Shown here in pieces: positions 10,383 through 54,910 of a stretch of DNA of 64,000 bases. The stretch lies in NCBI GenBank assembly GCA_001643675.2, contig LSRY02000008.1:868001-932000 (forward strand). The letters are read 5' to 3'. This DNA comes from Monocercomonoides exilis PA203 (taxonomy: Eukaryota > Protista > Preaxostyla). The position numbers and the translations under genes are program-made. The notes beneath the pieces are model-generated. The model had not been told where the DNA came from and searched no databases. It saw only the letters and a program-made list of their open reading frames with translations. Position 1 is the first letter of the stretch. Every line of letters starts with the position of its first letter.

Positions 10383-12375
10383 AGGGTTATTATATTATCT
10401 TGACCATTTTTCTTTATTTTTTCCCAAAAAAAATGAAGTGATAAAAGTACAAAAAAATAACATAATTATTAGAAAAAAAAAATCAGAATTAATTCTTCTG
10501 ATAACTTCCCTTTTTCCTTCACCTCGATTAAATTTATTATCTTTCTTTTCTTCATCAGTATCATAGTTTTTAACATTGAAATATTTTCTGTTTCTTTTTT
10601 TTCTTTTCATCATCAACAGTATTCACTTCATTTTTATCTTATTTTTCCATTTAATTTTTCTTTTCAATATTCATTTTTTTAAATTATTTTCCCATTTCTC
10701 TAAAAGATTTTCATCGGTTATCACTTTTTTTAAAAAGTTGAATCTATTTCTTCGGGATGGAAGAGGATAAATTGAAGATTCGGGCAGTTTCAAAAGAACT
10801 GGCCCAGAAGAATTGTGAAGAACACCAGCGCAGACGAAAGCTTTTTGAATTACAGAAGGAGATAATGCAGTGTGGATGGCTTGAGGCAGAACGTCGGAAA
10901 TTGCAGCTCGTTTGGAGGAAGAAGAGGAAGATAGAGCCTCAAATCTGTTTGTCATTTCAGATTTGAACACAGCAAACACTCCTCTGTCCAGTGGTTGACA
11001 GGGGTGTGTGTTGCGTGGTACGAAGGTTTAAACGTCGACTTGTTGTTTTTGGAATTCTCGCTAGATCGATGGATCTGCGCGAGATGCATGCAAGTCAAGG
11101 AGAAGAATGTGTTCGTTTTCAAGTGAAATGCGCTTTCTTCTTTCGATGATGGAAGGTAGAAGAACGGTGAGAGCATACCTTTGAAAGCACTCGTTGTCCA
11201 TCCAGTTACTTCCATTTGCCCAAATATCCAGCGTTGGGGATAAAAGGCTTTTCAGCTCCTCTGGAAGGCTGACACTTGGCCACAAAATGCCTGAAGGAAA
11301 GGCATATCCGTCCGCTGCAACAGCTTCCACAAATGTAGAATTAATCATTCTTGGGGGTTCTTTCGTAAAACCTGCTTTTGTGTCTGCAGTATGCACAACA
11401 AGCTGTTTTGAGTCTGTGGGAACGCGCATTGAAGATTCATCGATGTTTATAATTAAAGCAGGATTGTGATGGTATTTTTCATGCAGCTCGTCGAGTGTTT
11501 TATACCAGGGTTTTAAAACACTTCTGCACGAAACAGCCAATCTGTTGATGTCCAAATTCTTCTGCGTTCAAGTCTTCAGCTCCGGATGACGTTTGACAAA
11601 GCCACACATGGCAGACATTGAAACTTCGTGAAATGGTGCATCTTCTTCATCGTTGTTGTTTAAAACATTTTCCATCTGAAAAACAAATGATTGAAACAAA
11701 TGTTTAATATTAAAAACAAACCAATTCTTTTGTTTTTTTAAAGTTAAACCTGTTTTAGACTTTGCTTCAATGTGAATAATGTCTAAAACTCTTTGTTCCT
11801 TTTCGCCCACTACTGCTGCAGATCTGCCAATTTTTCCACCAGCCTTCCTTTTCTCAGCGCTCAAACTGCATTCTATATTCCTGTACGGCTGAATTCCTTG
11901 GAATTAATAGCATCCGTTATGCGAACAACTCCATCTATAACGATGTGAGCCATTCGCTCCAGCTGACTGTGATAATTCCTGTGCTTGCGCGAAGACATTG
12001 CTCTCTGTAATTTTTTCTGACCTTCTTTTAATTTTATTTCTGTTGATATTTTCATTTTAATTAAATTTTAAAGATCATCATAATTTTTTTTATTTTTTTA
12101 ATTGAAATGAAAAAAAAATATATAAATGGCATTTTAAACAAACTGAAGGTTTTATGCAACATGTAACACTCCAATTTTACACAGAAGTTCAATGAAGGGG
12201 CTAAACCCCCCATCTCCCCCCCATGCGAAATTGGGTTTGTTTAAAAATGTATTTATTTTTATCAATTGAATTCATATATATACTTAAAAATCTTCAAAAA
12301 TATGATATTGTGGGAAAAGTTAATGATTAAAAAAAAAAGTCTTGATAAAAAAGGTCAAGATAAAATTATGACCCC
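10383..12375 (-). mobile_element. pogo/Fot1-like (DDE_1) transposon relic, ~2 kb
   Basis: Imperfect TIRs: AGGGTTATTATATTATCTTGACCATTTT (10383) versus the reverse complement of ~12348-12375, GGGGTCATAATTTTATCTTGACCTTTTT. They enclose a fragmented transposase. Confidence 0.65.
10671..12055 (-). pseudogene. pogo-family transposase (HTH + DDE_1), frameshifted
   Basis: INIDESS, TFVEAVAADG, WANGSNWMDNECF, ILLLDLHASR, then the STFKPSYHATH…/EECLLCSN region and IQKAFVCAG. Upstream CENP-B-like segment (…GFVKRHPELK). Split over at least 4 ORFs. Confidence 0.85.
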
Positions 12376-13099
12376 ATTAGTCAAATTAAGACTTGCAGGC
12401 TTTGGATCCAGATTCAGCCTCCCAGGAGAAAAAAAAATAATTTCACAATTATTCACGAAAAAATAATTTATAATAAAGATTTTTTATTTGTTTTTATTCA
12501 TTTATTTTGATTTTATCTATTTTCTATATTCTATTTTTTCACCCACTATCCTCTCATACTTGTTCTATTTTATTCAAATATTTTTCCTTTGATATGATGT
12601 TTTCCTTCATTATTACAGGCATAGGATCATGGGTGGAATAAAAGGCATAGGTGTAAATTGTACCACTTTCAGTTTGAATTTTTTCAAAATTTGAATATTA
12701 TAGCTTTAATCTACATAATTTAACTAAGCGATTCAAGGAGGGAAATTTCGAAATTCGATCATAATTTTTTAGACAGAATTTTTAATTTTGGAGACCCATA
12801 ATATTTTTATTATGATCACAGCAATCTTAATATTCGATTTCTTAACTCCTAAAAGTTCAAATGAATTTATCGATTCAATGAAACAAGAAATAATATAGTT
12901 TTTATTGTTTGACATGGTGAAATTTCGTCAATTTTGTTATATTTGTTGTTATTCATTTCTAATTCAATGTTTCGACTAAACACAAGCGTACGCGCAATAG
13001 CAGATGTTACAAACGATGCAGTAACAGATACAACAACATTAAGAAGTATCTATATTTTTAATTTTTAATTGTTATCGATATTAATAAGATAATCGTAAA

Positions 13100-14050
13100 A
13101 ATATTTTCTATCTTACCTTTCTACAATGATGAATCTCAGATGCATCTGAAAGATTTATAAAACGCAAGCTTTGAAAAAGAAAAATTTTTTTAGAGAAAGA
13201 AGAGAGCGTGCACCGAAAATACATTTATGGAGAGAACATGAAGAAGCTGAATGATATGAATTCATTGGAGTTTGATGAGAAAAATGGATTGATCAGAAAG
13301 GACAAAAGAATGAGAGGCGAAGATTTAGTTGAAGAAATTATTTGTTTGAGGAAAACTTTGAAGAAACCTTCACATTAGATGAAAGGTTGAAAAGCTGTTT
13401 GACTGAGGTTGGGATATGCAGTGGAGCTAGAGCTTACGGAAGGAATGAGAAGGTGCAGAGCATTAAATAAAGTCATCAAAGAACGCTAGAACTTCATTAT
13501 CGAGCAAGGTTTTGCTGAAACGTTGGAGGAAAAAGAAAAAGAAGAAAGAAAGAAACGAATTGGCATGAAAAAGAAAAGATTTTACTATGTGCAAATTAAA
13601 TGGATTGCTTCATATTTGTGAGAGATATATCTACGTTCAGCCATATTAGTAGCATCATCTTTATGTTCATTTTGAAGGTGATGGTTGTAAGGTTGTGATT
13701 TTCCGAGCAGCAACAGCAAAAAATGCAAATAGAAGTTAAGAAAGAGAAAGACGAGATGAAAGTAAGAAGGGAGTGAAATTGAAGCAGGGATGAGATTATT
13801 CAATACAAGTGATATAAGAAGAGGATATGATGGAAAAGCTCATTTAATATGGAGCAGCTGCTGAAGTTGACAGAGAGTTCAAGTTGAGATGGGGAAAGTT
13901 GGCTGTTGGAAAAAAGAGATAAAGAAAACAAATGTGAACGTTGAGGGTTACGGAGATTATCGAGTGAAAGAACGAGAAGAAGGAAGAGAAGAGTGTGGCG
14001 AAACAAAGAGACTAATTAAAAATGCGATGTTGGGGATGGAAAGGGACATC
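13100..14050 (+). pseudogene. Degenerate host-gene fragment inside the Pack element
   Basis: Purine-rich, coding-like + strand sequence with short ORFs (13889-14137) and many stops; convergent with the beta-helix fragment. Confidence 0.35.
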
Positions 14051-14599
14051 TTTGAATGTTATTTTCTAAAAATCTTAACTTTTTGCAAAGGTATTTCAAA
14101 CATAGTCTTTCCATTTTTCATTTTTTTTTCTCATTGACATTGTTGATTTCTTTTTCATTTCATCTTTTTTTTCGTTTGTTTCTGTTTATGGTTTATTGTT
14201 GTTGTGCAAAATTATTTTTTTCCTGTTTTTTAACAAAGTATCCACAACAAGCTCGATCATAACAATTCACACATGCTATATTTTGGTTTTTCAAAGCTGC
14301 TAACGCTGGCCTACACACTTATAAAAGAAATGAGTGCGAATTAGTTAAAGCTTGAACGAATTAAAAACAATTAATTCAATTATTCATCATTTTTGAAGTA
14401 TTTAAAAATAAAAGATAAAATTATAGCAATGTGCAAATAGCGCATTCTAATAATTGAAAATAATTACTAAGCCGGCTCAAAAAATTGTTTCTGCATGGAT
14501 CAGGAATGAAGTTCTGCTCTATCTTCAGTGCGCGATTCGATATTTGTGGTGCAGCGGAAGAATCAACTTTTTTTCAATAGCTATTATTGGAAACTGTGG

Positions 14600-16063
14600 C
14601 GGAGTGGGTGCAAATGACAAATACAATATTGAATTCTCCTTCAGACTTGGGATTGACTCTTATCTTTGCAAGCTAAAATATCATAACTTTAGCAGGCATC
14701 ACAAACACGCTTGGCAATAGATTTCTTGCGAATTGTGATCGATCCCTACATGCCACACCTCCAACTGCCCTCTTGTCACACTGAACAGCTCTCCAGTTGA
14801 TGATGGAAAAGAAAGTACTCCTGTTCCAATCGAAGTCTAATCTTTACCCGTTCCAATGACTGAAATCTTCTTTGTCTCAATATCAATTGTTGCTGTCTCG
14901 CTTGTGTGATTCCCGTCCATCAGTGTAACTGACAGGCTCACTTGAATCACGCTCTTTTCAACTGCAACACCAATGGTTCGGCATGCACTTGACTCGTTCA
15001 ATCCACACAACTCTTATTCACAGCCGCCACTCACAGCCACAAATCGATTGTGAATCCCTCTCTTCAGCCATTCCTTCTTTTCTGTGTGCTGAAATGTCCA
15101 ACCCGTTGAACTCGAATAATCATGTCCATAACACACTCTCTTCTCGTCTGTGTTTGTGGTGTAGCATTCATAGAACGGATTTCCTGAACCCAAATAGAGA
15201 TTGTATCTGTCCTCGTAATGGATGTCATCTCCATATGATGGATCACTTAAACAACTACAGTCATGAAAGAAAAGGAAAAAGAAATACAGTTTGTCACTTA
15301 GCAACACTTCTTTCCATGGAGAAAAGAACAATCCGCCTCCTTTTGTTGATGCTGTACACGAAGGAAACTGAATACTCCTCATTTTGAATTGCGTTGCATG
15401 AACAGTTTTGCAAAACATACCTCCACCATTAGCATTTTCAACAAAGCACAAAGTGAAATTGCAGTCAAACACACACGAGCTCCTTCCTTCTCCGTCTTCT
15501 TCACCAATGCATCTAGATCCTGAAACCTGAAAATTCACCAATCTCAACCCTCCTCCATCGTGGTGTGCCTTACAATTCTGGAAGTCACATCCGCTGACAA
15601 GGGCACATGAACGAATTTCGCAAGCATACACCCCTCCCCCGCCATAGTTTTGTGCTGTGCACGAATTGAACACGTTGCTCACCATTTTGATCGTCTTGAT
15701 TGCATGGCACATGACTGCTCCCCCATGGTAGTATGCAGCGCAGCCATTGAATGAACAATGAGAAACAGAAAGTTCTCCAGAATTGAGATTGTACATGCAG
15801 ATGGCACCTCCACTCGACATTCCATCCGACCATGAGCCACTTTCTCCTGTTGTCCTCGATCCACTCCACTCGCACCAAGTGAATGTATTCGCTCCATTAT
15901 CCGTTGTATTCTGTCTCCCTGGAGTCATCTTTCTATCTGCAGTTCCAGTGCATTCAACATCTCTTGTTCTGCAACATCCAATGAATGAGGTGTTTGAGGC
16001 AGTTAAAGAGGCCAAGGGGTTGTTGAGAATGAACAATCCCGCCATCATATGCATCACAAACAA
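14600..16063 (-). pseudogene. Fragment of pectin-lyase-like/PMP-type beta-helix surface protein
   Basis: 349-aa ORF with repeated GGA(I/V)/GGG…C.F..C.A motifs. The frame continues past the 15014 stop as ELCGLNESSACRTIGVAV…, with further stops. Confidence 0.75.
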
Positions 16064-19000
16064 ACCAAATTGAACAACTATTCATCAGATATGAGGTTTA
16101 AGAAAATGTTGTTGTTGAAGGTGAATAATCTGTAGATGATGTTGAAATGTTGAAAAATGATAATTTGGAGAGGGATACAGGGGGAATGGAAGACGATGAG
16201 AAAAATCGGTAAATAGAGGAGAAATGTGATTCAATAACTGAAATTCTTCCTTTCCCTTCACTTATTTGCCACATGATTCTTTGTGCTATATCGTAAAATA
16301 TCCCATTGAGCTTGAGTTCCCCTTATTCTGCCTCTTCTTCTGCTGCTGCTTCCGAAAAGATTTTTGTTAAAAAAAAATTCCACAAAAATTTCTTTCCCCA
16401 TTCTCTTCAGTTTTTTCCGCCGGGATCATTCTTCCAAACACTCTTCGGTTGCTGATTTCTCCCAATTTCTTCCAGGAATGCTCATAAAAAAAGCAGTGTT
16501 TCCACATCCCATATTTCATGCTCCCCCGGCGCTTCTGACAACACCTGATCGCATCACACATCAATGAAATCAAAAATAAAAAAATAAAAATCAAAAATGA
16601 CATATAAAGAAAATGAACAAACAAGAACAAAATACCTCCAGAAATTTTCATTTCCCTTCACTCCCTTCATCGCCTGTTTGCTTCTCTCCAAATAACTCTC
16701 ACCCCTACTTCATCGACTTCAAGCACCACGTCACGCTTTATCCTTACAAATTCAATTCGATCCAAAATATTGCAACTGGACCCGATTTTCATTTCGTCAC
16801 TTACCTTTAAAAAGCAGTCCAATCAAAAAGAGTGAGAAAAGTGCATTAAAAGAAGTTGATAAAAAATTGCAAGCAATTTACAAACAATGCATATGTTTCA
16901 TTCAATTTTTGCATAGGAGTTGTTTTAAAAGAATTATCATTTTAGCTTTCTAATAAAAGAGCATTGCGTATTTTTTGAATCTTTCAGAATTAGCAACATA
17001 AAAAATAAACTTGACGAAAAATCACCGCAGCAAACATAAAACACTATAATTCTTCTAGTTTCATTGAATCGAAAAATTCATTCAAACAATGCAAAGCTAG
17101 AAATAAATATTTTAATAAAATGTGATCAAAATTAAAATATAATGGGTTGCATAAAATCAAATTTTTTGGATAATTTTCATGATCGAATTTCAAAATTTCC
17201 CTCCTTGAATCACTTTGCTTTATTATGTAGATTAACGAAATAATATTTAAATAATGAAAAAATGTAAACTGAAAGTGGTACGATTTACACCTATGCCGAA
17301 TAAAAGTCCAAAGGAAATATATTTTGTCCCAAATTTTATTTTAACGAACTTCAGCATGTTTTTGATAACTCAAAACTATAACTTTGTTACAAGGAAATTT
17401 TTGGAAACCTATGTCAGTCGAAAGGATCAACCAGTGTCGAGTTTTTTTTTGGATTCAATTCAATATCACATAATTTCATAAAAATGATAATTAATTTTTA
17501 ATGATTTTTTAGCAAAAAATATTTTTTGACTTTATGTTTTAATTTAATTTTTATTTTCATGAAGGAGAAATAAAGTATAGACATTTTGAGAATTTTATTC
17601 TTCTGAAGCGTCAATCACGAAAATATTAAAACAGAAATTTCAAAAAAAGAGAAAGGAACAAATATTTTTTTTTGAAGATGAAATAAAAGCACACAAAAGC
17701 CATAATTAAATATAAATAAAAAAAAATTAGATTTTAAAGGAAACTATCAATTTCATGATACCATTTTGATACAGTTCACCTTCTTTGTTAATATTGAAAA
17801 AAGAAATATTGCCGTGTTATCTGCATTCATTTCTTGCAGTCCAATCCTGTTCTTTCACATCCTGAAATGCTCTTTCTAAAACGTTGCCAATCGGCTGAAT
17901 CTAGTTGCCAACAATTGAATTGCATTAGAACATGAAAAAGATAATTGGAAGACGAGAAGCAGCTGTTGAATTAATAAAAAAGTCACGCTTTTTTCAAAGA
18001 AGATAAAGAAGGTTTTACTGCTGGATTAGCACTTGACGAAGAAAAATAAGCAGAGGCAGTTAATGGAAGAGATGGTTTCAATGAATTGAACAAGCTATTA
18101 GCGAATAAAACAAACAAAAGATGAAAATCGAAAAGAGTTCTGGGAACAGAAAGAAAAGCAAAAACAGAGCTGACCTGCCATAGCATTTAGTGCAAATCAG
18201 TATTGCTGTCCAGCAGATAAACTGCTTCAAACATAATTTGAACCTCTTTGCAACTTAAATAGCAATATGATATGGAAAAAAGATAGAACAGCAAAGGCAC
18301 AGGAAGTCTTATCTTTCATAATGAAACGGCTGTCGACGTGAATGATGCGTGAACATCTGAATGAGGACGAAGACGAACATTCATCAGCTCAGTCATGTCA
18401 CTCCTGTTCCTCACGTTCCCATCACCATTTGATGTGGGTAATTATTTTTGAAATCATAACTTTTTTCGGGGTGTTGTTTTTTCAAAAGATTGTTTTCCTT
18501 TGGGAAGAAATTTCATATTCAAATGCTTCTATCACCACAACTGTTTTTGAAACAAATGTATCAACAGACTTAAAGATGAAAATGTCTTTTATTTGCCTAA
18601 CCACTTCTCACTGTTCATTTGTTAATATTCAAGAGAAATTTTTGGACCAAAAATTTTGAATGAATACATATGATTTCAAAAATAATCACCCATGTATCTT
18701 CGCAGTGGCCAACGTGTGCACTGTTAAGAAGATGTTTATGATGAACGATGAAAAATCTCCCATCGAAGACTGAAGGATAAAGAAGATTCTCAAAAGCCCG
18801 ATGCTCTCGTTCGGGAGACAGTGGTCTAGTAACATTCGGTTCAATTAGTTTCAGTCACATTTCAGTCAGAAGATAATTAATGGACCGCAAAGAAGAAGGA
18901 TAAAAACGAGAATGAAAGGATTGCGGTGGATGTGATAATGATGAAGATAAAGTGAAAAGTGAAACCTGGGAAGGAAAAGAAAACAGGAGTGGATACTGCA

Positions 19001-21346: not shown

Positions 21347-23988
21347 AGACCTATTTTAGTTAGAATCAATAAATTCAAATATGTTAACTCAATTTCAATT
21401 ACCTTCAACTTATCCAAATTTGCTTAATCTAATTCGAATTCCCTTAAACTTTTTTTTGGTTAAAAGGGCAATTTTATGATCAACACAAAATGATCGCAAG
21501 TTTTTGTTTTTGAGCATTTTTCACTAACTTTGAATGAAAACTGAACAAAAGATTATGGCTCATCATTAAAAAGAAATGTGTGTAATCAATTATTAAAAAT
21601 TTTTGAGTTTTTTCTGTAAATTTTTCTTAAATGTGACTTTTTTTATTATTGATGTATTCTCTTTCACATACACAAGCTTTGCATATTGCTATATGTATTG
21701 GATGATCCATTTTAGCTTTTAACGAGATTCAAATTGTATTTTCTTGAATTTTTTTGCATTTTGCAATATTTTCATTTCAACTTCAATTTTTATTGGCTAT
21801 GAAATAATAAAGAATGAAAATGAAGCTTAAGTTTAAAAATTTTTTTCTTAAAAATAAAACTAAAGAAAAAATCTTATAATTCTAAAAATTCTTTTTCCTT
21901 TTTTTTAAAAAAAGAGAGAAATGAGAAAGAAAATTGGTGAAAGTTTATTAAGAAAAATTATAATGATTATAATGGCCTTCATGTGGTTATTTGAATATAG
22001 TGATTGTTATTTTGTTTGACTATGATTTTCATTGGATGAGAAAGAAGAAGATCGTGCGCAAGATAAGTTTGAATCTGAAAATGCAGAAGAATCTGATTGT
22101 TGAGAAAATAAATGATGAGTTGAAATTAATTGCAAAGACGAAATTGGAAAGTTTGACAGTGGTTGAGTAGAAATTATCGTATCATTCAGTGAAGCTTGAG
22201 AAGAATATTGTGTATTTATTAGGGGCAAGGTGGAATTCGATAAATATTGATCAGATGAAGAAGTCGGCTTCCGCAGACGAGTTGATTCCCATTGATCTTG
22301 AAGAAACCAAGAAAAAGGGCAACTTCTTGTATCGTCGTTTATTCTTTCTCTTTCTTTCAAATTTTCTTCATTTCTTTCAGATTTATTGAAATTGACAGTT
22401 TATCTTTTTTCTTTTTCTTTTTCTTTTTCTTTTTCTTTTTCTTTTTCACTTTCTTTTTCTTCAAAAGTTGAATCATCATCTATTTCTATTTCTTCTCTTT
22501 CTTCTAACTCCAATAATGAATGTTTTTGTTTTTTCTCTTGATCTGAATGCATGGAAAATCGTTTGCAGTATGGGTCGTCTGATTCTGTTGATTCTTCTAA
22601 AAATGATAAATAATGGTAATATGAAAGTGAAAAAATGTTCTTTTCATGCTCAAAAGAACAATGTGTGTGCAAAAACAAAAACAAACCAATTCTTTGGATT
22701 GACTTTGAATATTCAAAAGTTGAATTCTCATTTGAAAGATTAAGTTTTTTTCTTTGTCTTTTTAGACATTGCTCGTTCGCTTTCTTTTTCGCTTCCTTTT
22801 TTTGATAAAATTGAGTGTGAAGTTCGTAAATAATCAACTCGTTTGCTTCGCAATCTGATTTCGTTAAAGGATTGTGTAAAATGTGAAAATTGGTTAAACA
22901 AACTGAAACAATAAAAAAATCTTCAACTGTTTTAATATCCATAGGCCAATTTCTTCTGAACACAGTAAATAAAGTCTTTAATCGTCCAAAAAACTTTTCC
23001 ACAATAACCCTGTGCTTCGATAGATATGGTGTTCCATGTGGTTTTGTAACAATAGCTCCCAGTTCTGCTTTTGCTCCCATATAGGCTGAGTCTGCCATGA
23101 TTTTGGAACCTTTGAGATGTTGAGAGAAGGTTGGATAGTGATTTTTGAATATTTCGTAGTCATGAACGCTTCCTGGGTAAAAATCGCTGATTGTGCTGGC
23201 TAATCCGTTCTTTGGATTGACTCCAATTTCAACTTTAACACAGTAAGAATGATGTTTTCCACTAAAAAATTTCATTCCATCTGCCAATTTTCCACTTGGC
23301 CTGTTAATAGGCACAATTGCGCAACCCATAATTAGACCAACCTCTTGTAACTCTTTAATTCTATCTTTACGAAAAAACAAAAAAAATTCACAACTGTATC
23401 TTTTATGTTTCCAACTATGCTGTGTAACAACTGCGTTACTGAGTTATGTGATTTGTATAATGGATAAGTCAAAAGTTCTGTCATTGATGTTGAGCCCAAA
23501 TGAAGGAAATTGAGTAAAATAAAAAGTTGTTCGTCGATATTTTGAATTGCCTTTTGCTTTCCACGATGTTGAGGTAATTCGTAATCAAGAAAAAGAAGCA
23601 ACATATCAAATTCTGTTCTTGTGAAACCTGTCAAGCGGAAAAATCCGTGAATGGGATCTTCGCTTTTTTGACAAGCTTTTTCTGTTAAGGAATTTTTTTT
23701 CTCTTCTGGAGTTATTGGCGTATGCGTTGGAAGCGTTATTCTTTTTTCTGCTCGCTCAAGAACCTCCAAAAAATTCAATCGTTCCATGACAAATATTTAT
23801 TTGCAAAATTTCAATTGATCTTTCACCATTTTTTGTTCAATCAACTTTATGATCAATAAACCAGTATTTGAAGTTTTGAAATTGATTGAGTCATTATGAA
23901 AAAGAATTTGTTTTATCGTATTTTTATCAAACTTATTTCAATTTTGTTCCACTTTTTCAAATTGAAAAAATATATTTAAAATAGGTCT
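21347..23988 (-). mobile_element. PIF/Harbinger-superfamily element (Pangu-like), ~2.6 kb
   Basis: 12-bp TIR AGACCTATTTTA at both ends; AAT at 21344-21346 and 23989-23991; internal DDE_Tnp_4 transposase. Confidence 0.85.
22400..23787 (-). pseudogene. DDE_Tnp_4 (Harbinger/ISL2EU-type) transposase, one frameshift
   Basis: FFRLTGFTRTEF and EQLFILLNFLHLG (HTH region); FFSGKHHSYCVKVE, PGSVHD, IMADSAY, RVIVEKFFGRLK. Frameshift in A-runs at 23372-23386; the first catalytic position reads G (IMGC). Confidence 0.85.
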
Positions 23989-25479
23989 AATAACAAACAT
24001 GTAAAACTTGCAATTTCTATTGATTCAATAATCCTTTTATTCAAAATCAAAATTTTTTTTCGACATTGAATCGTCATAGAAATAATTTCTGTTTTGAAAA
24101 TAAGTTAAAAGAAATTGAATCACACGAGAGATTGATCTATTCTACCGACTGACCTTTCGACAGACTGATCTTTGTCATTAGACTGATCTCGACAAAGATC
24201 TGTCGATAACCCATTTTTATAGCGTTTTTGGTTATTTTTCAGAAAATTATTTTTTATCAAAAAAAGTTGTTAATTATCAAATGAAATATGAAAATTATTT
24301 TTTTCTTCAAAAAAATCAATAGAAAAAGAGATATATTGAAATATCTTTAAAAATTACAAATAAAAAAGTTTAGAATCTGTCTTGTCGGTCGACTTGTCGA
24401 GGTGCTTTGTGACAAGTCGGCTTGTCTCAAAGGCCTACTCAAAACATCACATATAACGAAAACAAACAATTAACAAACGAAATATGCAAGAATTAAAAAT
24501 TGCAGTAAAATGTGCATATTCCGGTTCTTCTATTAATTTTGAATATTAAGTTCAACACAATTGAATGATAAATTGTGTAATCATATTATTTCAACAAACC
24601 AAAAAAAAAAAAAAAACTGACAAAAATACTCTGAATTTTTCTTCCAGCTGTGATTAGCAATTAATTCTTATTTGTTTGATGATTTTTTTAAAATGAAAAA
24701 TTGCTTTTGTGAAGTGATGTCTCTTTGAAAGAATAAATATTTTTCGTAAAAAAAATTCAAAAATGATTTCATGTTTTTCATCTTCTTATTGAGTCTGTTA
24801 ATTCATGATTCATGTTAATAACAATCAAATCAATGAAATCACTGTTCAAGAATGTTATCTTTCATTGAGGTTGTTGAAGATTTTCATTTGTTGATTATTA
24901 TTGGTGTTCATCACAACAATAGATGAATTGTGAATAGAATTTTTCTATTTGAATAGATTCAACTTATTTAAATGAACTGGGTTTTTCTTAAATGAAGTCA
25001 TGTTATTTTAAATGAGTGAAGTGACACTTGAATAAAGTGCGATACACTCAAATAAAGTTTTTTTGAAAAAATGGTAAACACTAATTATAAAATTTTTACG
25101 TTTTATATTTCACTTTATCAATAAAATAAATTAAAAAATCCAAAATAATTGTGATTTTTCAATATTCTCAAACATAATTTGAGACGTGTTAAAAGAAGAT
25201 TTTATTTGATAGAAACGACGTGAAATGAAAGAAAAAATGAATTTGTTCTCGTTTTTATATCCTGTTTTTTCTCATTAACAAAATATTTGATCATCACGTA
25301 ATTAAATATCTTAAATAAAAATTTGCTTCAATGAATGTTCATGGAGCGATTTATCACTGATATTTTCCGTAGTACTGAAGCGCGAAGCTGAATACATGGG
25401 TTGATGCAGCTTTCGATATCAACTTTCTATATTTACGGCTTATGAATCAATTATTTCATCAGATTTTTATTCAAAAAGC

Positions 25480-26400
25480 CACACTTGATTCTTCTTTAAT
25501 AAATCAGTATCTGCTTTCATCCACTGAGCGTCAGAAGAAATCCTTATCGTCACCATCCCAAACTCCTTCGGATCCTTTCTGCTGTTATCATTCACAATAT
25601 CTTTCTAATCTTCGGCTTCATTTTTTTCCTTCTTCCTCAAACAGCCAAAACAACAATGACTACAAGCAGTAATACAACAACCTCAATGCAAACAATCAAC
25701 TACCAATACGATTTCCCTTCTTTTCCTCCTTCAACAATCCTTTCATCCCCATTTGTTTTCGGCTCACTTCTCTTCTTCAGAACAAATGCATCAGTTGCAG
25801 ACAACCGCTTCCCAAACAAAATCATCACAAACACCTCTGTTTCATCCAAAGCCAATGAAATATTCTCTGATGGAACTCTTCCAATCACTTCCGTTTCTGA
25901 AACAAACCCATCTTCTTTAAAATGATATGTCTCAATCAGGTCTGTATCTCCAGCTGATAAAAACAGTCGGAATGACAAATCACATGGCAGAAGAAGCGCT
26001 CCATTGAATTGAATTTCAGTTCCACCTCCATTTTCGCTGGCAGAAGCCCCTTCCAGCTTGGGAATGAAGAAGGGCAATTCCCTTTCTCCTGCCATCCCTT
26101 CCAGGCTGCATCCATCATCCAGAATCCACAACGAAGAATTATCTTTCACCCCATCTCCTACCTTCAAGCACGAAATAGTCAGCGAAGCAGAATCGAAGCA
26201 GATGATATTATTCGGAGTAAACAATATAAAAAAAATGGATTGTGGTGAAAGAATTATCCTTTCTCAATCGTCACATTTCCAGCCAAGATCGACAATTCAC
26301 AAACGAAGAATTAGAAATTGAAGCTCCTTTGTTATAATTGCTGAATTTTTTTGATGGACAAGAGAATTATTCTGCACAAACAAATCTTCTAATCTTTAAG
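25480..26400 (-). pseudogene. C-terminal fragment of a large single-pass surface protein (cargo)
   Basis: 174-aa ORF ending EGGKEGKSYW*, followed in frame by LIVCIEVVVLLLVVIVVFGCLRKKEKNEAED*KDIVNDNSRKDPKEF: a TM segment plus cytoplasmic tail, with premature stops. Confidence 0.65.
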
Positions 26401-27801
26401 CTTCATCTTGAAAATGAGAAGTGAAGAAACAAAAGCTTCCAGCAAACAGATTTGTTCACACTCCAGCGAAAGAGCAGAACAGCATCAACAAAGCTATTTT
26501 TCTTTTGGTGTATCAACTACAACCTGAGAATGAGCAGTTATTCAAAAAAATCGATGTATTTAGAGAAATCAGCCATTCTCTCTAAGGAGAATTCGAATGA
26601 ACAGAAATGCAGCTGCACAAAATTACTGACAGCTTCATCTCTCTTCTCATTTTATTGTCAGCTCACATCCTTCTTCTCATCATATCTTCTCCGACAAAAC
26701 TTTTCAAAGTTCTGATCTCCAAAAACGGAACCTCATGAATCACACATCATTTTGAGGCCTATGAGAAATTGAAGCAAATTATGCCACAATTTCACATGAT
26801 CTGCCTTGAACATTTTCGCTGATCCGAATTCATCGACTTTTTCCAACAATAAGTTGATTCTTGAAATGGAATTTTGGAACTTCGTTATTACACCTTCTCC
26901 TTTGCAGCACATGAAGATGACCAGGAGCCTGTGAAAATAACCATTTTTTATGGAAAAAAGGACACAAGGGGAAAAAGAATGTGAAAAAACAATATAATTT
27001 CGAATGAGCTTCTGAAAATTTTGAAACAATTGAATAGACCTTAACTCACAAGGAAAACAATCTATGTATTTCACATTTGAGTATTGCTTTATTCGTAAAA
27101 CTGATATACGTTACGAATAATTAGAAAATTCGTTCAACGTGTTTTTAACAATTTTGAGCATTCGATATTCTGGATGCACCTCAATATTAATTTACTAATT
27201 TGTCTTTATTTTCAATTTGTCAGAAATGAATGAGTCTGGTGAGCTAAACTCAATCAACTTTACAAAAGCAATATGTGTTGAACTTTTATTTGACTTTTTG
27301 TTAAACTGATCATGTTTTTTTGGAGATTCTCTCAATATGATATCTTTTCAAGAAGATTTTAACAAATACTAATGATGTATCTCGATTTAAATGTTCTCTG
27401 GGAAAGTTGGAATCATTGTTCAGTGCTGATGTTTCATTTTCCCCATAATTTTGTAAGAATTTTATCTATTTCGAATAATGTCGTTATTGTCTGGCACAAG
27501 CTCAATTGCTTTCTTTGGAATTCCTAGAGATGATGAAGTTTCACACATTGGAAGGTTTTCATTTTGAATTTTTCGTATTGTTGACATTTGTACAAAAATA
27601 TGCAGGGAAAAGAATGTGGAATGTCCATCGTTTGATCAAAACGTTTTTAAATTTAATGCACACTAGAAAAATAAATCCTGTGAAAGTCTTTCCCAAAATG
27701 AAGATAATTCATCTCATCAACAAACTGTTTCATCAACATCAAATGTTCTGAATGTTGCTAATCATACAACACCATTTGTTAACAACGAAACAAGAGAACA
27801 T

Positions 27802-29386
27802 TTGAATTCAAAAATTCAAAAAACTTCAGATAGTCCTTCTATTAAAGAGTCGCCTTCAAAATATACTCTGAATTCAACAAAAATCAAAGAGAAAAGATAC
27901 AAAAAAATGAAGCAATCTGTTAATCTGCGGAATGAAAAGCCGAAGCGGAAACAGCCGGATTTTGACGAAATGCAGGATAGGAAAACAAAACAATTGGAAA
28001 AAATAGAAAAGATTGATATTAATGAAGATAAAGAGAAAAAAATAGAATCACTAGGATTTATCACTGATCATTATCTTCGTTTCACCTATGATGAGCATTT
28101 ACGTTTACCGAAAACAACAATTGTTGAACTTGTAAATTTGATAAAATCCATTTTGAATAGCGCACCGAAAAAAGGGCCTCCATCAACACTTTCACCACAT
28201 GATAAGCTTATAGTGTATCTTGAGTGGCTGTCCAGCAGGACGACCTTGGAGAGGATTTCCTCTTTAATGGGTATATCTCAATCAATGGCAAGCAATTGTT
28301 TGACTGATATACGTCCCGCATTGCTTTCTGCGTTGAATGAAATTTTTTCCACTCCACCTAGGCCTCCAACAATTCCCAACGAAGAATTTCCTAATGTTGC
28401 TTTGTTAGTCGATGCAACGACAATCAAAGTGCCATATCCCATTTCTACCACATTCACCGAAGGGAAAAAACTGTTTGATGCACATCATTCAGTTTACTGC
28501 ATCAAAAACGAAGTGGCGGTTTCATCTTGGAAACCTCACAAAGCCTTATTCGTTTCTGACGCGATTGAAGGAGGAAAACATGATGTTTTTCTGTTTCGAA
28601 AAGGAATGAAAAGATATGAGGAATATATGAAAAAAACCGATGAAGAAAGAATAAGGAATTATCATGATTTAAGGAATGATAGCTGGGTGATCATGGGAGA
28701 CAAAGGATATCAAGGACATTTCCCAAACATTCGATTGATCACTCCCATCAAAAAATGTTTTATCCAAGAATTGACTTCCGTAAAATTTTCATCAGAAATA
28801 GCCAAGCTTCCTTCTCCTCCTCGTTCTCCTTCTCCTCCTTCCTCTCCTCCTTCCTCTCCTTCTTTTACTTCTCCACAACAACTCCCTTCACTCCCTGCAC
28901 CTCCTCCGCTTCCTCTTATTCCTCAAACTGAATCGTATTCCACTTTCCCTGAATGCTCCCAAGCTTTCACCCAACTTCCTTCTGATTGTTTTCCTGAAAC
29001 AATGAAATCAACATCACAAGCCTTGTCACAACTTTCATTCATTGATTCTTCCATTTCATCATTAACAAAAAGCGCATCATCATCATCAACGACTGAATCC
29101 TCTAGCTCCATATTCGACCAACTCACCGAACAAGAATTGGATTCTCTGAGTATTGATGAATTCAACAAGAGCATTGCAAGATGCCGTATTCCTGTTGAAT
29201 GGTTTTTTCGGCCGGATGAAAAAGCTTTGGCTCAGACTTTCTGATACCTACTCAGGAGGCAGAGAAAACGTTGGAACAGATGCAAAAATAGCAAGTTGGT
29301 TGACTAATTTGGTTATTGACTATCACAGATTGGAAGATGATGATGGTAAATTTTATAAGAAAACAGAAGTGTTTGAGTGTTATTAA
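27802..29386 (+). CDS. DDE_Tnp_4 transposase with HTH; single frameshift near the C-terminus
   Basis: LSPHDKLIVYLEWL…ISSLMGISQS (HTH), LLVDATT, HHSVYCIKNE, GGKHD, IMGDKGY, RIPVEWFF/GRMKKLW. One extra T in the T6 run at 29203-29208. Confidence 0.85.
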
Positions 29387-30137
29387 GAAAATGAAAGAAA
29401 GAAAATAAGAGATATTAATACACATGCAAACACCGAAAGAAAAGCAATTCGAAAAACTTCATTTATGTAACAATTTTTTATCATTGGCTTTTGAAATATT
29501 TCGAAAACAAACGAAAATACAGGAGCACGATTTCCAACTCATATTTTTATGTACGACAATTGCATTTTTGTGTCAAATTGAACAAAGGAATGGAAATTTC
29601 ATTTATTTCTTGATGAGATTCATTTTTCTGTTGTTCTATTTCTATACCTCAAAAGATTAAGATAAAAAACATTCTTGTTTTCTTCGAATGATTTATTTTA
29701 ATTTCAAAGACACAAATGCTTCACTAATTTTATCATATTGCACAAAAGAAAAGAAAAGTCAAGAAAAGAAATAAACAATTTTAATTAATTGTTGAAGAAA
29801 TGAACAAATGATTTTTTATTATTCGCAAAAAGTTATTTGGCATCGAAAAATGAGATCTTGATTTTTATTTACAAAATAAATTATTTGACGAAAATAACAA
29901 AAATAATTTCCAAAACAATATTTTCAATATATAAATAATATTTGAATGATTTTGCAATCAACTAATTTTGTAATTTATTTGTTTATTTTTTCCAAAATTT
30001 CTCGAAGCTCAAATGAACTCAGTCTAACTCAAATGAACTCGGTTTATTCAAACAAACTCGATCTATTCGAACAAACATGAGTTCATTTGAATAAACCTAG
30101 TTTATTTGAATAAAAAAAATCTATTCAAAATTCATCT

Positions 30138-33100
30138 AATGAAAGATTTCTCATTGCACAAAATATTGATTCCATGATAAATCACTGTACCGATAAAAAC
30201 AATTCATTCTATGATGGAAAAAGAAGATAAACTTGTTGTTCACTTGATGAATGTGCTCCATAATAAAATAATGCCGAGGATGATTTGCCTGTTTTTCGCT
30301 TTGCTGGGGGCGCTGAGGGCTGCGGAGCGTGGGCAGGGGCAGGGGCAGCGGAACTACCTGCAACTGCGCGATGGGGAGCTGCCTCGTATGTGTGCGTTTT
30401 GGTTGGCGTCTTGCCGCGAAGTGGCGATGAAATGACTTTTGATGTTTTGTGTGATTTGTGTGATTTTTTTGGGTTGGGTGGGAAGAGTGGTACAACGTGA
30501 CGGTGCAGCAGGACAAGGGGCGGGAGTGCCTGGAGAGGGCGTTTTCGGGGTATGACTGCGGGAAGATGACGCTGCAGGAGAAGCTTCGGCTGACCATCAA
30601 GCTGCTGAACTGCTATGGGGACGAGATGGGTTTGGCTTTTCTGTTTTTTCTATTTCTTGGGGGTTTTTGGGATTTGGGGTGGGAATGATTGGGCGATTGC
30701 TGGCGGGGCTGTGATTTGCAGGGCTGAAGCCGTACCGGTGCGCAGACAGCTGGGACATTTCGGTGTGCATGAAGAAGCTGAACGACGAAGAGAAGTCGTC
30801 GATCCGGGACAAATCGCTGACGATAGGTTTGGGTCATCTTTGTGTTCTGTGCTGTAATTGTTTTGTTTTATTTGACTTTGTGACTTGTGGTTCATTGTGT
30901 GTTGGAGGCAGACAGTGTTTGCTATTCGTTCAAAAACGAGACGGTGATGCAGCGGATAAGCATGCTGGTGGATCGGGTGGTGGCGGGGAGCGAGGAGACG
31001 CTGGAGCAGCTGTACAGCCTTGTGGAGACGTCGCAGTCGGTTTTTGAAGCGACGAAGGAGTCGGTGGAGATGCAGGCGCAGCTTGCTGTGCAGCAGGAAG
31101 GGATGAAGGCGGAGATGAAGGGGATTGAGGAGGAGCACCAGAAGCAGAGGGAGCTGATCCAGAAGGGGTTTGGGGAGATTGGGGATGCGACTGGTTTGGT
31201 TCACAGCTGTATTTGATTGAAGAAAGTGAAATCAATGAAATTTATCTCTCTCTCTCTTTTTTTTGTTTTTTTCAATTTTCATTGTGAAAGAGGGGATTAA
31301 GGAGAAGATAAGTGAGTCGGTGAGGGAGACGAAGGAGCTGGGGGCGGTGCAGAGGGAGGTGTGTGAGGAGCAGAGGAGGTGGGCGGCGGGGATGAAGGAG
31401 CAGCTGTCGGGGGTGGCGGAGTCGGCGGGGGAGGTTGCGGAGTGGATGAAGGCGGCGGCGGCGGGGCAGGCGAAGATGGAGGCGGCGGCAGCAGCGATTG
31501 GGGCAGGGATAGGGGCGGTGGGGCAGATGCAGCGGGAGGCGGAGGAGGCGCTGGGGCGGATAGGGAGGGAGCAGGAGGGGATGAAAGGGGTGCAGGCAGA
31601 GACGCGGGAGGAGCAGAAGAGGATGAGGGCAGAGATGGAGATGGTTTGGGAGAGCTCATCAAATTCATTTTATTATCCTTTTTTATTCCTCTTTTATTTA
31701 TTTTTTGACAGTCGTTTGACAGCATAGCGCACCAGCACAGGAGCCTGCAGAGGCAGATGGAGGAGTCGGTGGAGCACTCGGAGCAGATCTTGGAGCAGCA
31801 GAGGCGGGCGGTGGCAGAGATGGAGGGGGTGATGGCTGTGCAGGGGAAGGCGTTTGAGGAGACGGTGAGGCAGCTGGTGGACATCCGGAGCGACACAACG
31901 GTGTGGGTGGTGAGGGTGGTGAGGATGGTGAGGATGGTGAGGGTGGGAATGCTATTATTTTTCTTCTATTTCTTTTTTTGTGGGAGAGAGAGAAAAAAAA
32001 CATAAAGAGTGAAAATGCTTTGTTTTCTTTGTCATTTTATTTCTCTTTTTCTCTTTTTTCTTTTTTCTTTTTCATTTCTTTTTGTTTTTGTTTTTGTGGG
32101 GGGAATGGAACATGGGAAGATGGTGACGGAGAGGCTGAGGCAGCAGAATGAATATCTTCGGACAGAGTTTTCGTCAGTGCGGGTGTGGATGCAGCGGATT
32201 CTGAGTGGGCAGTCATCGATTTTTGGTTTGAGGCAAAAGGAAAAGAAAAGAAAATTCAAAAATATTTTATTTATTTTATTTTTGTATGTTTTGATGATTT
32301 GTGCATTCGCAGCTGACTTGAGTGGGCTGCACAGCATTGCGTTTTATGTGGCTTGTCTGCTGTTCTTCCAGCTGGTGACGTCGCTTCCGCACACAAAAGA
32401 GGCACGAATATGGATATTTTATTGTTTGCCTGTGAAGAAATGAGAGGAAAGAGAGAGAAAGAGAGAGAAAGAGAGAGGAAGAGACTGCTTTCCATTCATG
32501 TTCATTTTTATTGTATTTTTCTGTTCTTCTTCTTCTCATTCGATTTCGTTCTTCTTCTCTTTTGTGATTCATCTTAAACAATGACGAAATATGGAATGGA
32601 GTGTGGGTGGTGTTTTTTGTGGGGGAGCGAGGGATTTTGTGGGTTGTTGGCAGGAGCGGGGCAGCGGCAGAGGAGATGAGGCGGTTTGCAGGCAGCTGGC
32701 ACATGCTGTTTGTTTGTTTGTGTGTGTGTGCTGTGGGGCATGCGGTGTGGACATACAAAGACTACGAGGCGCTGAACAACACCCTTCTGAAAGAGAACTG
32801 GAAGAAAGCGAGAGAACTGACGAATGCGGTTGGTGATGCTTGGAATATATTTCATCTTCTTCAATAATGTCTTCATCTTCATCTTCATCTTTCTTTTTTC
32901 TTTTTTATTTGTTTTTGTTTGTATTCAGTTCCGATTCTATGCAGATGAAGTGAGCCGGCTGAAGAGGCAGGAAGAGGATGGGCAGCGAAGAGGAAATGGG
33001 CAGTGTGGGGGAAAGAGAAGGAAGAAAGGGGAGAAAGAAGGGAGTGTGTGGATTGGGAGGAGTTTTGATTCATTTGGGTTTCCATCAGCAAAAGAGAAGA

Positions 33101-33729
33101 GAACAACATTTGATGAACACACATCATCATCATCATCATCTTCTTCTTCTTCTTCTCCTTCTCCTTCTCCTCCTCTTCCCCCTCATCCCTATCTGCATTT
33201 TTATCCACTTCGCTCTTCTTCTCACTTCAGCCAATTCGACGAGGATTCATTTGCTTTTGAGAGAAACACGAGGAGAGCTGCTTCTGTTTGAGAAAGAGAA
33301 AGAGAAAGACAAACAATTTATTTATTTCAATTTAATAGAAATGGAAATGGAAATAAACATTCAATGAAATATCAGGAGAGAAAGAAAAAGAAAAAAATGA
33401 AGAAATCAGATAATTTTGCCTGTTTGCAGTTTTTGTGTTGTTTTTATGTTTGCTGCTTGGACAAACGCATTCAAACCTCATTTCATCCATTCTCAAATGT
33501 TTATTGCTTGTTTTGTTAATTTTTGCATTTTTGGAAGAGAAAGTTGCATTGTTTTGTTTTTGAAGGATTGCAGCAATTATAAAAAAGATGAAACAAACGA
33601 TTTCGAACAGAACATTCCACAAACAAGAAGAAGCTGTTTGTTTTTGAATGAGAAGAAATTGTTTGCTGTTTGGGGTTGTTCAAATGAAGTGTTTTATTCT
33701 TGTTGCATTTTCTTGTTCATGAAATGATT
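30138..33729 (+). repeat. Left arm of large inverted duplication (plus displaced outer part ~24725-24920)
   Basis: Reverse complement of 39075-42660; the ORF track is mirror-symmetric. Confidence 0.97.
30271..33291 (+). CDS. GEX1: GEX1/KAR5/Brambleberry-family nuclear membrane fusion protein, copy 1 (multi-exon)
   Basis: Signal peptide MPRMICLFFALLGALRA. Spliced exons (30271-30385, 30486-30629, 30722-30826, 30912-…) give the Cys-rich domain CLERAFSGYDCGKMTLQEKLRLTIKLLNCY…PYRCADSWDISVCMKKL…IDSVCYSFKNE. This is followed by a long coiled coil, TM segments (SIAFYVACLLFFQLVTSLPHTKEARIWIFY; LFVCLCVCAVGHAVWTYKDY) and a cytoplasmic tail. Confidence 0.88.
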
Positions 33730-39074: not shown

Positions 39075-42000
39075 AATCATTTCATGACAAGAAAATGCAA
39101 CAAGAATAAATCACTTCATTTGAACAACCCCAAACAGCAAACAATTTCTTCTCATTCAAAAACAAACAGCTTCTTCTTGTTTGTGGAATGTTCTGTTCGA
39201 AATCGTTTGTTTCATCTTTTTTATAATTGCTGCAATCCTTCAAAAACAAAACAATGCAACTTTCTCTTCCAAAAATGCAAAAATTAACAAAACAAGCAAT
39301 AAACATTTGAGAATGGATGAAATGAGGTTTGAATGCGTTTGTCCAAGCAGCAAACATAAAAACAACACAAAAACTGCAAACAGGCAAAATTATCTGATTT
39401 CTTCATTTTTTTCTTTTTCTTTCTCTCCTGATATTTCATTGAATGTTTATTTCCATTTCCATTTCTATTAAATTGAAATAAATAAATTGTTTGTCTTTCT
39501 CTTTCTCTTTCTCAAACAGAAGCAGCTCTCCTCGTGTTTCTCTCAAAAGCAAATGAATCCTCGTCGAATTGGCTGAAGTGAGAAGAAGAGCGAAGTGGAT
39601 AAAAATGCAGATAGGGATGAGGGGGAAGAGGAGGAGAAGGAGAAGGAGAAGAAGAAGAAGAAGATGATGATGATGATGATGTGTGTTCATCAAATGTTGT
39701 TCTCTTCTCTTTTGCTGATGGAAACCCAAATGAATCAAAACTCCTCCCAATCCACACACTCCCTTCTTTCTCCCCTTTCTTCCTTCTCTTTCCCCCACAC
39801 TGCCCATTTCCTCTTCGCTGCCCATCCTCTTCCTGCCTCTTCAGCCGGCTCACTTCATCTGCATAGAATCGGAACTGAATACAAACAAAAACAAATAAAA
39901 AAGAAAAAAGAAAGATGAAGATGAAGATGAAGACATTATTGAAGAAGATGAAATATATTCCAAGCATCACCAACCGCATTCGTCAGTTCTCTCGCTTTCT
40001 TCCAGTTCTCTTTCAGAAGGGTGTTGTTCAGCGCCTCGTAGTCTTTGTATGTCCACACCGCATGCCCCACAGCACACACACACAAACAAACAAACAGCAT
40101 GTGCCAGCTGCCTGCAAACCGCCTCATCTCCTCTGCCGCTGCCCCGCTCCTGCCAACAACCCACAAAATCCCTCGCTCCCCCACAAAAAACACCACCCAC
40201 ACTCCATTCCATATTTCGTCATTGTTTAAGATGAATCACAAAAGAGAAGAAGAACGAAATCGAATGAGAAGAAGAAGAACAGAAAAATACAATAAAAATG
40301 AACATGAATGGAAAGCAGTCTCTTCCTCTCTCTTTCTCTCTCTTTCTCTCTCTTTCCTCTCATTTCTTCACAGGCAAACAATAAAATATCCATATTCGTG
40401 CCTCTTTTGTGTGCGGAAGCGACGTCACCAGCTGGAAGAACAGCAGACAAGCCACATAAAACGCAATGCTGTGCAGCCCACTCAAGTCAGCTGCGAATGC
40501 ACAAATCATCAAAACATACAAAAATAAAATAAATAAAATATTTTTGAATTTTCTTTTCTTTTCCTTTTGCCTCAAACCAAAAATCGATGACTGCCCACTC
40601 AGAATCCGCTGCATCCACACCCGCACTGACGAAAACTCTGTCCGAAGATATTCATTCTGCTGCCTCAGCCTCTCCGTCACCATCTTCCCATGTTCCATTC
40701 CCCCCACAAAAACAAAAACAAAAAGAAATGAAAAAGAAAAAGAAAAAGAGAAAAAGAGAAATAAAATGACAAAGAAAACAAAGCATTTTCACTCTTTATG
40801 TTTTTTTTCTCTCTCTCCCACAAAAAAAGAAATAGAAGAAAAATAATAGCATTCCCACCCTCACCATCCTCACCATCCTCACCACCCTCACCACCCACAC
40901 CGTTGTGTCGCTCCGGATGTCCACCAGCTGCCTCACCGTCTCCTCAAACGCCTTCCCCTGCACAGCCATCACCCCCTCCATCTCTGCCACCGCCCGCCTC
41001 TGCTGCTCCAAGATCTGCTCCGAGTGCTCCACCGACTCCTCCATCTGCCTCTGCAGGCTCCTGTGCTGGTGCGCTATGCTGTCAAACGACTGTCAAAAAA
41101 TAAATAAAAGAGGAATAAAAAAGGATAATAAAATGAATTTGATGAGCTCTCCCAAACCATCTCCATCTCTGCCCGCATCCTCTTCTGCTCCTCCCGCGTC
41201 TCTGCCTGCACCCCTTTCATCCCCTCCTGCTCCCTCCCTATCCGCCCCAGCGCCTCCTCCGCCTCCCGCTGCATCTGCCCCACTGCCCCTATCCCCGCCC
41301 CAATCGCTGCTGCTGCTGCCTCCATCTTCGCCTGCCCCGCCGCCGCCGCCTTCATCCACTCCGCAACCTCCCCCGCCGACTCCGCCACCCCCGACAGCTG
41401 CTCCTTCATCCCCGCCGCCCACCTCCTCTGCTCCTCACACACCTCCCTCTGCACCGCCCCCAGCTCCTTCGTCTCCCTCACCGACTCACTTATCTTCTCC
41501 TTAATCCCCTCTTTCACAATGAAAATTGAAAAAAACAAAAAAAAGAGAGAGAGAGATAAATTTCATTGATTTCACTTTCTTCAATCAAATACAGCTGTGA
41601 ACCAAACCAGTCGCATCCCCAATCTCCCCAAACCCCTTCTGGATCAGCTCCCTCTGCTTCTGGTGCTCCTCCTCAATCCCCTTCATCTCCGCCTTCATCC
41701 CTTCCTGCTGCACAGCAAGCTGCGCCTGCATCTCCACCGACTCCTTCGTCGCTTCAAAAACCGACTGCGACGTCTCCACAAGGCTGTACAGCTGCTCCAG
41801 CGTCTCCTCGCTCCCCGCCACCACCCGATCCACCAGCATGCTTATCCGCTGCATCACCGTCTCGTTTTTGAACGAATAGCAAACACTGTCTGCCTCCAAC
41901 ACACAATGAACCACAAGTCACAAAGTCAAATAAAACAAAACAATTACAGCACAGAACACAAAGATGACCCAAACCTATCGTCAGCGATTTGTCTCGGATC

Positions 42001-42855
42001 GACGACTTCTCTTCGTCATTCAGCTTCTTCATGCACACCGAAATGTCCCAGCTGTCTGCGCACCGGTACGGCTTCAGCCCTGCAAATCACGACCCCACCA
42101 ACAATCGCCCAATCATTCCCACCCCAAATCCCAAAAACCCCCAAGAAATGGAAAAAAGAAAAGCCAAACCCATCTCGTCCCCATAGCAGTTCAGCAGCTT
42201 GATGGTCAGCCGAAGCTTCTCCTGCAGCGTCATCTTCCCGCAGTCATACCCCGAAAACGCCCTCTCCAGGCACTCCCGCCCCTTGTCCTGCTGCACCGTC
42301 ACGTTGTACCACTCTTCCCACCCAACCCAAAAAAATCACACAAATCACACAAAACATCAAAAGTCATTTCATCGCCACTTCGCGGCAAGACGCCAACCAA
42401 AACGCACACATACGAGGCAGCTCCCCATCGCGCAGTTGCAGGTAGTTCCGCTGCCCCTGCCCCTGCCCACGCTCCGCAGCCCTCAGCGCCCCCAGCAAAG
42501 CGAAAAACAAGCAAATCATTCTCGGCATTATTTTATTATGGAGCACATTCATCAAGTGAACAACAAGTTTATCTTCTTTTTCCATCATAGAATGAATTGT
42601 TTTTATCGGTACAGTGGTTCATCGTGAAATCAATATTTTGTGCAACGTGAAATCTTTCATGGCTGTGATGAAAACCAAAAATAATTAAAAAAAGAAAAAC
42701 TTCATCAACCTCAATGAAAGATAATATTCTTGAACAATGATTTCATTAACTTGATAGTTATGAACATGAATCATGAATTAACAGACTCAATAAGAAGATT
42801 GAAAAACTTGAAATGATTTTTGATTTTTTTATTAAAAGTTTGAAAATTTCTTCAA
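39075..42855 (-). repeat. Right arm of large inverted duplication
   Basis: 39075-42660 mirrors 30138-33729; 42660-~42855 mirrors ~24725-24920 with more mismatches. Confidence 0.95.
39512..42528 (-). CDS. GEX1: GEX1/KAR5-family protein, copy 2 (multi-exon)
   Basis: Mirror copy of 30271-33291; exon-spanning ORF translations are identical (e.g. 41074-41538 vs 31263-31727). Confidence 0.88.
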
Positions 42856-43303: not shown

Positions 43304-43345
43304 GATCTTGTCCGGTATTATGTATTATGTCCTATATTTTATGCA

Positions 43346-54879: not shown

Positions 54880-54910
<31 letters not shown>

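Follow-up and report, generated by a model that had tools for sequence, protein, structure and literature searches.

We describe an element of 4,654 bp, bounded by terminal inverted repeats (TIRs), at positions 12644-17297 of a 64-kb stretch of the genome of the gut protist Monocercomonoides exilis (the window, by which we mean the whole stretch that was analysed and to which all positions refer). The reading that we favour, with somewhat better than even confidence, is that this is a non-autonomous TIR element with an 8-bp target-site duplication (TSD) and a broken host beta-helix fragment between its ends, that a Merlin (IS1595-type) transposase likely acted on it in trans, and that the fragment was captured and the composite moved at least once. 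An initial annotation, made from the letters of the window, had proposed a non-autonomous TIR element in a protist holding host gene sequence, and our results support an element of this kind, with Merlin as the best-fitting mobiliser. TIR transposons of plants and animals are known to capture gene fragments (PMC8903248, PMC8277862), and the Pack-TIR type as such is already known; what is new here is one decayed host gene fragment in a non-autonomous element that probably belongs to a new long-TIR Merlin family.

Termini, TIR family and superfamily

The TIRs, first estimated at about 290 bp, measure about 310 bp (Table 1). Their arms are 76.8% identical over 310 columns by blastn (E 1e-56), with 238 of 310 columns identical in a global alignment; 37 of 40 bases agree at the tip and the inner part is less alike. 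On the left, the first ~120 bp are best kept, and weak similarity perhaps runs on to ~12985. Both ends read GGCATAGG, that is, terminal 5'-GG-3'. The exact 8-bp direct repeat GAATAAAA that the initial annotation had pointed out does flank both ends of this one copy, and an 8-base match at these fixed positions is expected by chance at ~1e-4 given the local composition. Among the 58 inverted-repeat pairs listed in a window-wide scan, many of them redundant sub-pairs, this is the sole pair with a flanking direct repeat of more than 3 bp, and a search for the 20-bp terminus with up to 4 mismatches finds just two copies in the window, namely the element's own ends.

We traced the family of these TIRs through Logan contigs of public sequencing runs, five of which contain the stretch; contigs of four runs were compared with the element for depth, and those of two (X1 and X2) were used for loose ends. 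Summed contig depth is no copy number and is read here only as "tens of ends": in X2 it stands at ~8,150 at 12677, compared with 92-105 for single contigs that match exactly, and only 618 in the first bin beyond the element end. Five contigs in X2 and six in X1 depart from the window sequence at 12644, and their flanks agree only to 0.56 (X2) and 0.55 (X1). The TIR is a multicopy family with a sharp outer end at 12644 and differing flanks. The same TIR is present in two published Monocercomonoides contigs (supplement of PMC8101967), one of which, as judged by eye, has a visible outer end with a different flank and the other a different interior; in LSRY01001541.1, again by eye, ~100 of 109 bases are like the window's TIR. 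A search of metagenome contigs with the TIR pattern gave 0 matches. The outer ~120 bp of the TIR are far more abundant than its inner part, and depth decreases inward through the TIR until it is about 300-430 in the adjoining interior. Because depth falls inward and four contigs remain, most members of the family differ inside, and about four share the left part of the interior, which we call segment A.

The left flank, 12168-12635, is itself a high-copy repeat, with X2 depth up to 4,800. The motif GGCATAGG is present once more 26 bp upstream of the element, at 12618, and copies of CAGGC-T-GGATC stand at 12396 and 12616. The copy of GGCATAGG at 12618 may have been a Merlin-like end into which the element inserted; as the end of a host element it was rejected, no partner end being found in the window. 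An empty paralogous site was not found, neither as a joint of 12643 to 17306 among the 15 joints listed of 64 nor as a corresponding loose end among the 12 listed of 80.

Merlin transposons are defined by GG termini, a TSD of 8-9 bp and TIRs of 24-462 bp, and those of M. exilis, numbering more than 100 copies in seven families (F1-F7), all have 8-bp TSDs (Lopes et al. 2021, PMC8101967). The present element, with its GG ends, 8-bp TSD and ~310-bp TIRs, lies within these limits, so that the long TIRs no longer hint at Mutator as the initial annotation had thought, while its suggestion that GG termini and an 8-bp TSD fit Merlin is strengthened by the likeness to the published M. exilis termini. 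The combination of a GGCATA end and an 8-bp TSD fits these families, six of the seven having, by eye, an end that begins GGCA; the closest by eye to GGCATAGGTGTAAAT are F3 (GGCATAAAGG, right end) and F4 (GGCATATTGTAAAT), neither of them identical. LSRY01001580.1, a published contig extracted for its Merlin hit, carries GGCATAGGTGTAA at about base 365 within the ~400 bases available of it, with 13 of 13 bases as here before the two diverge. This end may mark a possible eighth, related autonomous Merlin family outside F1-F7 and hence a candidate partner type. We regard Merlin as the best assignment of the element, whose link to a Merlin transposase we infer.

A broken Merlin transposase relic, which the initial annotation had reported in the window, was confirmed by Pfam (PF12762, E 7e-18; Table 1), and its own ends were not identified. 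As a pointer to the mobiliser it failed: there is no copy of the element's terminus near it and, because that terminus occurs nowhere else in the window, the relic is not demonstrated as the partner. The claim that the element itself lacks a transposase agrees with Pfam searches of the main frames, in which the open reading frame (ORF) of the cargo has no Pfam family, and with tblastn, by which none of the window's five transposase pieces has a significant match inside the element (best E 0.044). Rfam gave 0 matches within 12000-18000.

The captured fragment and the remaining interior

Homology between the minus-strand cargo and a large family of host genes extends over positions 16367 to about 14700. 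In a search covering proteins of 623-2000 residues, 38 of the 39 matches to its ORF are M. exilis proteins, 50-63% identical, and tblastn gives a match to host coding sequence at E <1e-100 over about 430 residues. The reading frame is broken by stops at 15014-15016 and 14837-14839 and by frameshifts near 16026 and 14725, and the homology breaks off near 14696-14726 whereas relatives continue (18 of 19 inspected extend past this point, many by hundreds of residues). Contigs of both X1 and X2 contain the stop at 15014-15016 at single-copy depth, and it is therefore no assembly slip. The cargo is a truncated, pseudogenised host gene fragment from the N-terminal beta-helix region.

A structure model of the cargo, built on a 29-sequence alignment, has a predicted local distance difference test (pLDDT) score of 83.8 and is nearly all strand. 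Compared with solved beta-helix proteins it reaches Z scores up to 19.1, with a root-mean-square deviation of 4.3 over 267 residues, and the 50 structural matches listed are largely tailspikes, lyases and adhesins; Foldseek gave no match at E 0.001. The predicted fold is a right-handed parallel beta-helix. Homology, profile and structure model together bear out the minus-strand beta-helix fragment of the initial annotation. A PF07714 kinase domain is found at the C-terminus of two of nine long relatives scanned and, as the other seven have no Pfam kinase hit, the tie of the cargo family to kinases is partial. Judging from these relatives, the cargo would come from the outer part of a receptor-like surface protein. 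Contig depth over the cargo family is 40-280 times the single-copy level, equivalent to tens to hundreds of similar copies. Contigs of an RNA run (X5), which cannot show transcription, cover parts of the cargo, one piece (15341-15497) with 0 differences at depth 3.9.

Upstream of the recognisable cargo, DNA from 16368 to about 16820 is multicopy and likely represents a decayed 5' part or the 5' flank of the same gene, and 16824-16990 is nearly unique.

On the other side of the cargo, segment A has about four diverged relatives among the contigs, at least one of which is contiguous with the TIR; one contig, 12852-13024, crosses the inner edge of the TIR with 20 differences. The variant contigs of segment A differ by many single-base gaps. 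The initial annotation had read the interior as two convergent captured gene fragments, and while the minus-strand piece stood, the plus-strand one found no support: over 13120-14080, which is 66% purine on the plus strand, the score for coding potential falls short of significance (z 1.2, p 0.115; the confirmed cargo scores z 6.5 and the Merlin relic z 3.3), and an open-frame test gave p 0.053. Two read-through frames of this stretch have no homologue (0 of 1328 and 0 of 131 candidates), phmmer with one read-through frame gave 0 hits against 1.84 billion representatives, three plus-strand read-throughs of 13001-14202 gave only a sub-threshold HEAT hit in Pfam (E 0.074), and there is no match to the profile of the cargo family; frame-based searches of this kind are weak for a frameshifted relic. 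The stretch may be an old gene relic, and one of its frames presumably resembles, by eye, another large M. exilis family. Segment A was also considered as a decayed Merlin transposase and rejected, having no match to the Merlin relic of the window.

Table 1 Features of the TIR-bounded element and the Merlin relic in the window
Feature	Position	Strand	Basis
Broken Merlin transposase relic, PF12762 E 7e-18	~100-1030 (Pfam part about 400-1020)	+	Pfam
Left TSD GAATAAAA, 8 bp	12636-12643	+	Sequence, repeat scan
Left TIR, begins GGCATAGG	12644-12951	+	blastn, global alignment; multicopy; in published M. exilis contigs
Segment A, no identified gene; contains purine-rich 13120-14080	12952-14695		Contig pieces, homology and coding tests
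Broken fragment of large M. exilis gene family (cargo)	14696-16367	-	Protein homology, profile, model, contigs
DNA upstream of recognisable cargo	16368-16990	-	Depth bins, contig pieces; no protein match
Right TIR, ends CCTATGCC	16991-17297	-	blastn, global alignment
Right TSD GAATAAAA, 8 bp	17298-17305	+	Sequence, repeat scan

Origin of the composite

In the model that we favour, a Merlin transposase of an as yet undescribed M. exilis family would recognise GGCATAGG ends and make the 8-bp duplication. A break within a member of the small subfamily made up of TIR and segment A would have been repaired with a template switch that copied the host fragment in, and the composite would then have transposed at least once as one unit. 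The cargo would have decayed, so that the present copy would be a dead passenger with no working gene. Movement as a unit is supported because the variant contigs reach and apparently cross the cargo break, and because cargo and segment A are similarly diverged: segment A is covered by diverged contigs that start at the TIR (12852-13024) and extend to 14690, an X1 contig with variant bases spans 14690 by 48 bases on each side, and divergence from the nearest relatives is about equal, at 85-92% identity for the cargo and 85-90% for segment A.

Several observations weigh against this model. Repetition along the element is uneven, with TIR and segment A repeated, the right interior nearly unique and no contig spanning a second copy. 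The right interior is covered by an X2 contig with 0 differences (16611-17136), at depth 191 over 16824-17024, and has one 88% relative among the X2 contigs, at 16607-16869. A second complete copy, and hence a second TSD, is not among the contigs of X1 and X2. At 13237, 13658, 13846, 13876, 14682 and 14690 the window's base is in no listed X1 or X2 contig (X3 has it at three of the six), which may reflect filtered contigs, strain variation or an error in the assembly or window; as it is missing at 14690, the junction-crossing X1 contig could be this copy itself. All four DNA runs are from one sample, which may be the source of the window. The parent gene of the cargo was not identified, the nearest pieces among the contigs being those at 85-92% at the DNA level. 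None of the seven published F1-F7 ends equals, by eye, GGCATAGGTGTAAATTG (PMC8101967), and no autonomous element with these TIRs was seen in the window, the contigs or the first ~400 bases of the published copies. Finally, the letters also permit a 9-bp TSD, GAATAAAAG, with the ends offset by one base.

One alternative is a history in which the element is of the same Merlin type and the host fragment was copied in only after it had landed, by transposition-independent gap filling or nested duplication, the composite never having moved. We consider this clearly less probable than movement as a unit and the most serious of the alternatives. Most animal Pack-TIRs are single-copy and arise in this way (PMC8277862), and a cargo family of tens to hundreds of copies makes a stray piece in any 4.6-kb stretch not rare. 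The right interior is nearly unique, compared with about four copies of the left interior, and a one-off fill-in of a resident element fits it as well. Such a fill-in is at odds, however, with the diverged relatives of segment A that extend to the cargo break, one of them apparently across it, and with the about equal distances of cargo and segment A from their nearest relatives.

An origin from another superfamily, either Mutator (as a Pack-MULE) or a hAT/P-type family with 8-bp TSDs, is in our view unlikely. Mutator elements have long TIRs and TSDs of 9-11 bp; hAT ends begin CAG or TAG, and P ends begin CA. The 9-bp reading of the TSD and three X1 contigs with loose ends at 12645 would suit such a source, as would the TIR length, which is far above the 23-29 bp known from M. 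exilis Merlins (PMC8101967). Yet Merlin TIRs of up to 462 bp are recorded in the same paper, the ends closely match the GGCA(T) ends of the M. exilis Merlin families, and symmetric GG ends at 12644 are seen in most contigs and in the published contig with the visible outer end; because most loose ends fall at 12644 and not at 12645, symmetric GG ends with an 8-bp TSD are favoured. It is very improbable, lastly, that two short elements lying close together were mobilised jointly, along with the DNA between them. Such macro-transposition has been proposed as a mechanism for plant Pack-TYPE elements (PMC8903248) and would accord with the excess of the outer ~120 bp of the TIR over its inner part, but no inner TIR ends or TSDs were found, and the only two occurrences of the 20-bp terminus in the window are the outer ends.

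Compared with the M. exilis Merlin families F1-F7 (PMC8101967), the element shares the species, GG termini that are mostly GGCA(T) and the 8-bp TSD. Those families are about 1.4-1.5 kb long, with a DDE_Tnp_IS1595 transposase and 23-29-bp TIRs, whereas the present element is 4.65 kb long and has ~310-bp TIRs, no transposase found, host cargo and a terminus unlike theirs beyond 10-13 bases. Like animal Pack-TIRs (Tan et al. 2021, PMC8277862), it has host sequence between TIR ends, a TSD outside them and fragmentary cargo; the 370 animal cases are mostly hAT and Tc/Mariner, with a median captured size of 224 bp and the parent copy identified, and sampled no protists. With plant Pack-MULE and Pack-TYPE elements (CACTA, hAT, PIF and Mariner; Gisby and Catoni 2022, PMC8903248) it has in common that it is non-autonomous, with long TIRs, a TSD, a match to host coding sequence inside and no transposase match, and its 4,654 bp fall within the spacing of 0.3-15 kb between TIRs used to recognise Pack-TYPE elements; it differs from them in superfamily and host lineage and in holding a single identifiable gene fragment. 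The word "Merlin" is absent from the Pack-TIR list in Supplementary Data 1 of PMC8277862 and from the main text of PMC8903248, and the available part of PMC6431247 mentions neither gene capture by Merlin nor gene capture in oxymonads. In the literature searched, which excluded most subscription papers and Repbase, gene capture is reported neither for Merlin elements nor for oxymonads.

A second TIR element and other features of the window

A second TIR element lies 7.6 kb from the Merlin-like one, at 24921-30137 (5,217 bp), with short imperfect TIRs, ends AGATGAATT...AATTCATCT and a 3-bp duplication, AAT. It contains an ORF with a DDE_Tnp_4 (Harbinger-like) match below the Pfam cut-off (27667-29244, plus strand, E 6e-05). 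It also holds a C-terminal stretch from the beta-helix/kinase family to which the cargo belongs (25616-26212, minus strand; independent E value 2.4e-32 with the family profile). The empty site of this second element is preserved in the other arm of a large inverted repeat (24750-33729 and 39075-42830), whose 3.6-kb arms, 30139-33729 and 39075-42660, are 99.2% identical and flank a 1,410-codon ORF with no Pfam match. Beyond the inserted element the arms are only 90% identical (24750-24915 and 42664-42830), and the difference between inner and outer identity suggests homogenisation of the inner part.

Tyrosine kinases are the largest gene family of the M. exilis genome (PMC6759080), and 28.9 Mb of unclassified repeats, 35% of the genome, often overlap protein tyrosine kinases for a cause that was left open (PMC8767320). 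The cargo is like this expanded family in its 50-63% identity to M. exilis proteins, two of them with PF07714, and differs from it in being only the N-terminal beta-helix region, and broken. Because two unlike TIR elements hold the same gene family within 64 kb, we speculate that cut-and-paste transposons from two or more superfamilies in M. exilis, among them a Harbinger-like element and a new Merlin family with long TIRs, might routinely take up and move pieces of beta-helix/kinase-like receptor genes, driving family expansion and domain shuffling and partly explaining the unclassified repeats that overlap kinases. We hold this to be rather doubtful, the beta-helix/kinase family being abundant. 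If other copies of the TIR family bear out our reading, the present element would be a first Pack-Merlin as well as a metamonad example of a Pack element, and would add a transposon group and a eukaryotic lineage to those in which gene-fragment capture is known. It also suggests a testable route for the spread of the largest M. exilis gene family; a single decayed copy is by itself a modest finding.

Elsewhere in the window, a further Harbinger-like transposase (DDE_Tnp_4, E 7e-21) is split over two frames at 22400-23796 on the minus strand. A broken ORF at 10671-11903, also on the minus strand, has no Pfam hit for the piece tested and contains motifs that we take to resemble those of pogo/Fot1-type DDE transposases. 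The segments 50480-51090 and 43336-43603 are palindromic and similar to miniature inverted-repeat transposable elements, with arms 75-80% complementary. On the plus strand, a tubulin-tyrosine ligase family domain is encoded at 54722-56296 (PF03133, E 4.5e-13), and a 421-codon ORF at 62354-63619, with no clear Pfam family, encodes tandem repeats of 30 residues in which W and M are frequent (PPEWMRH).

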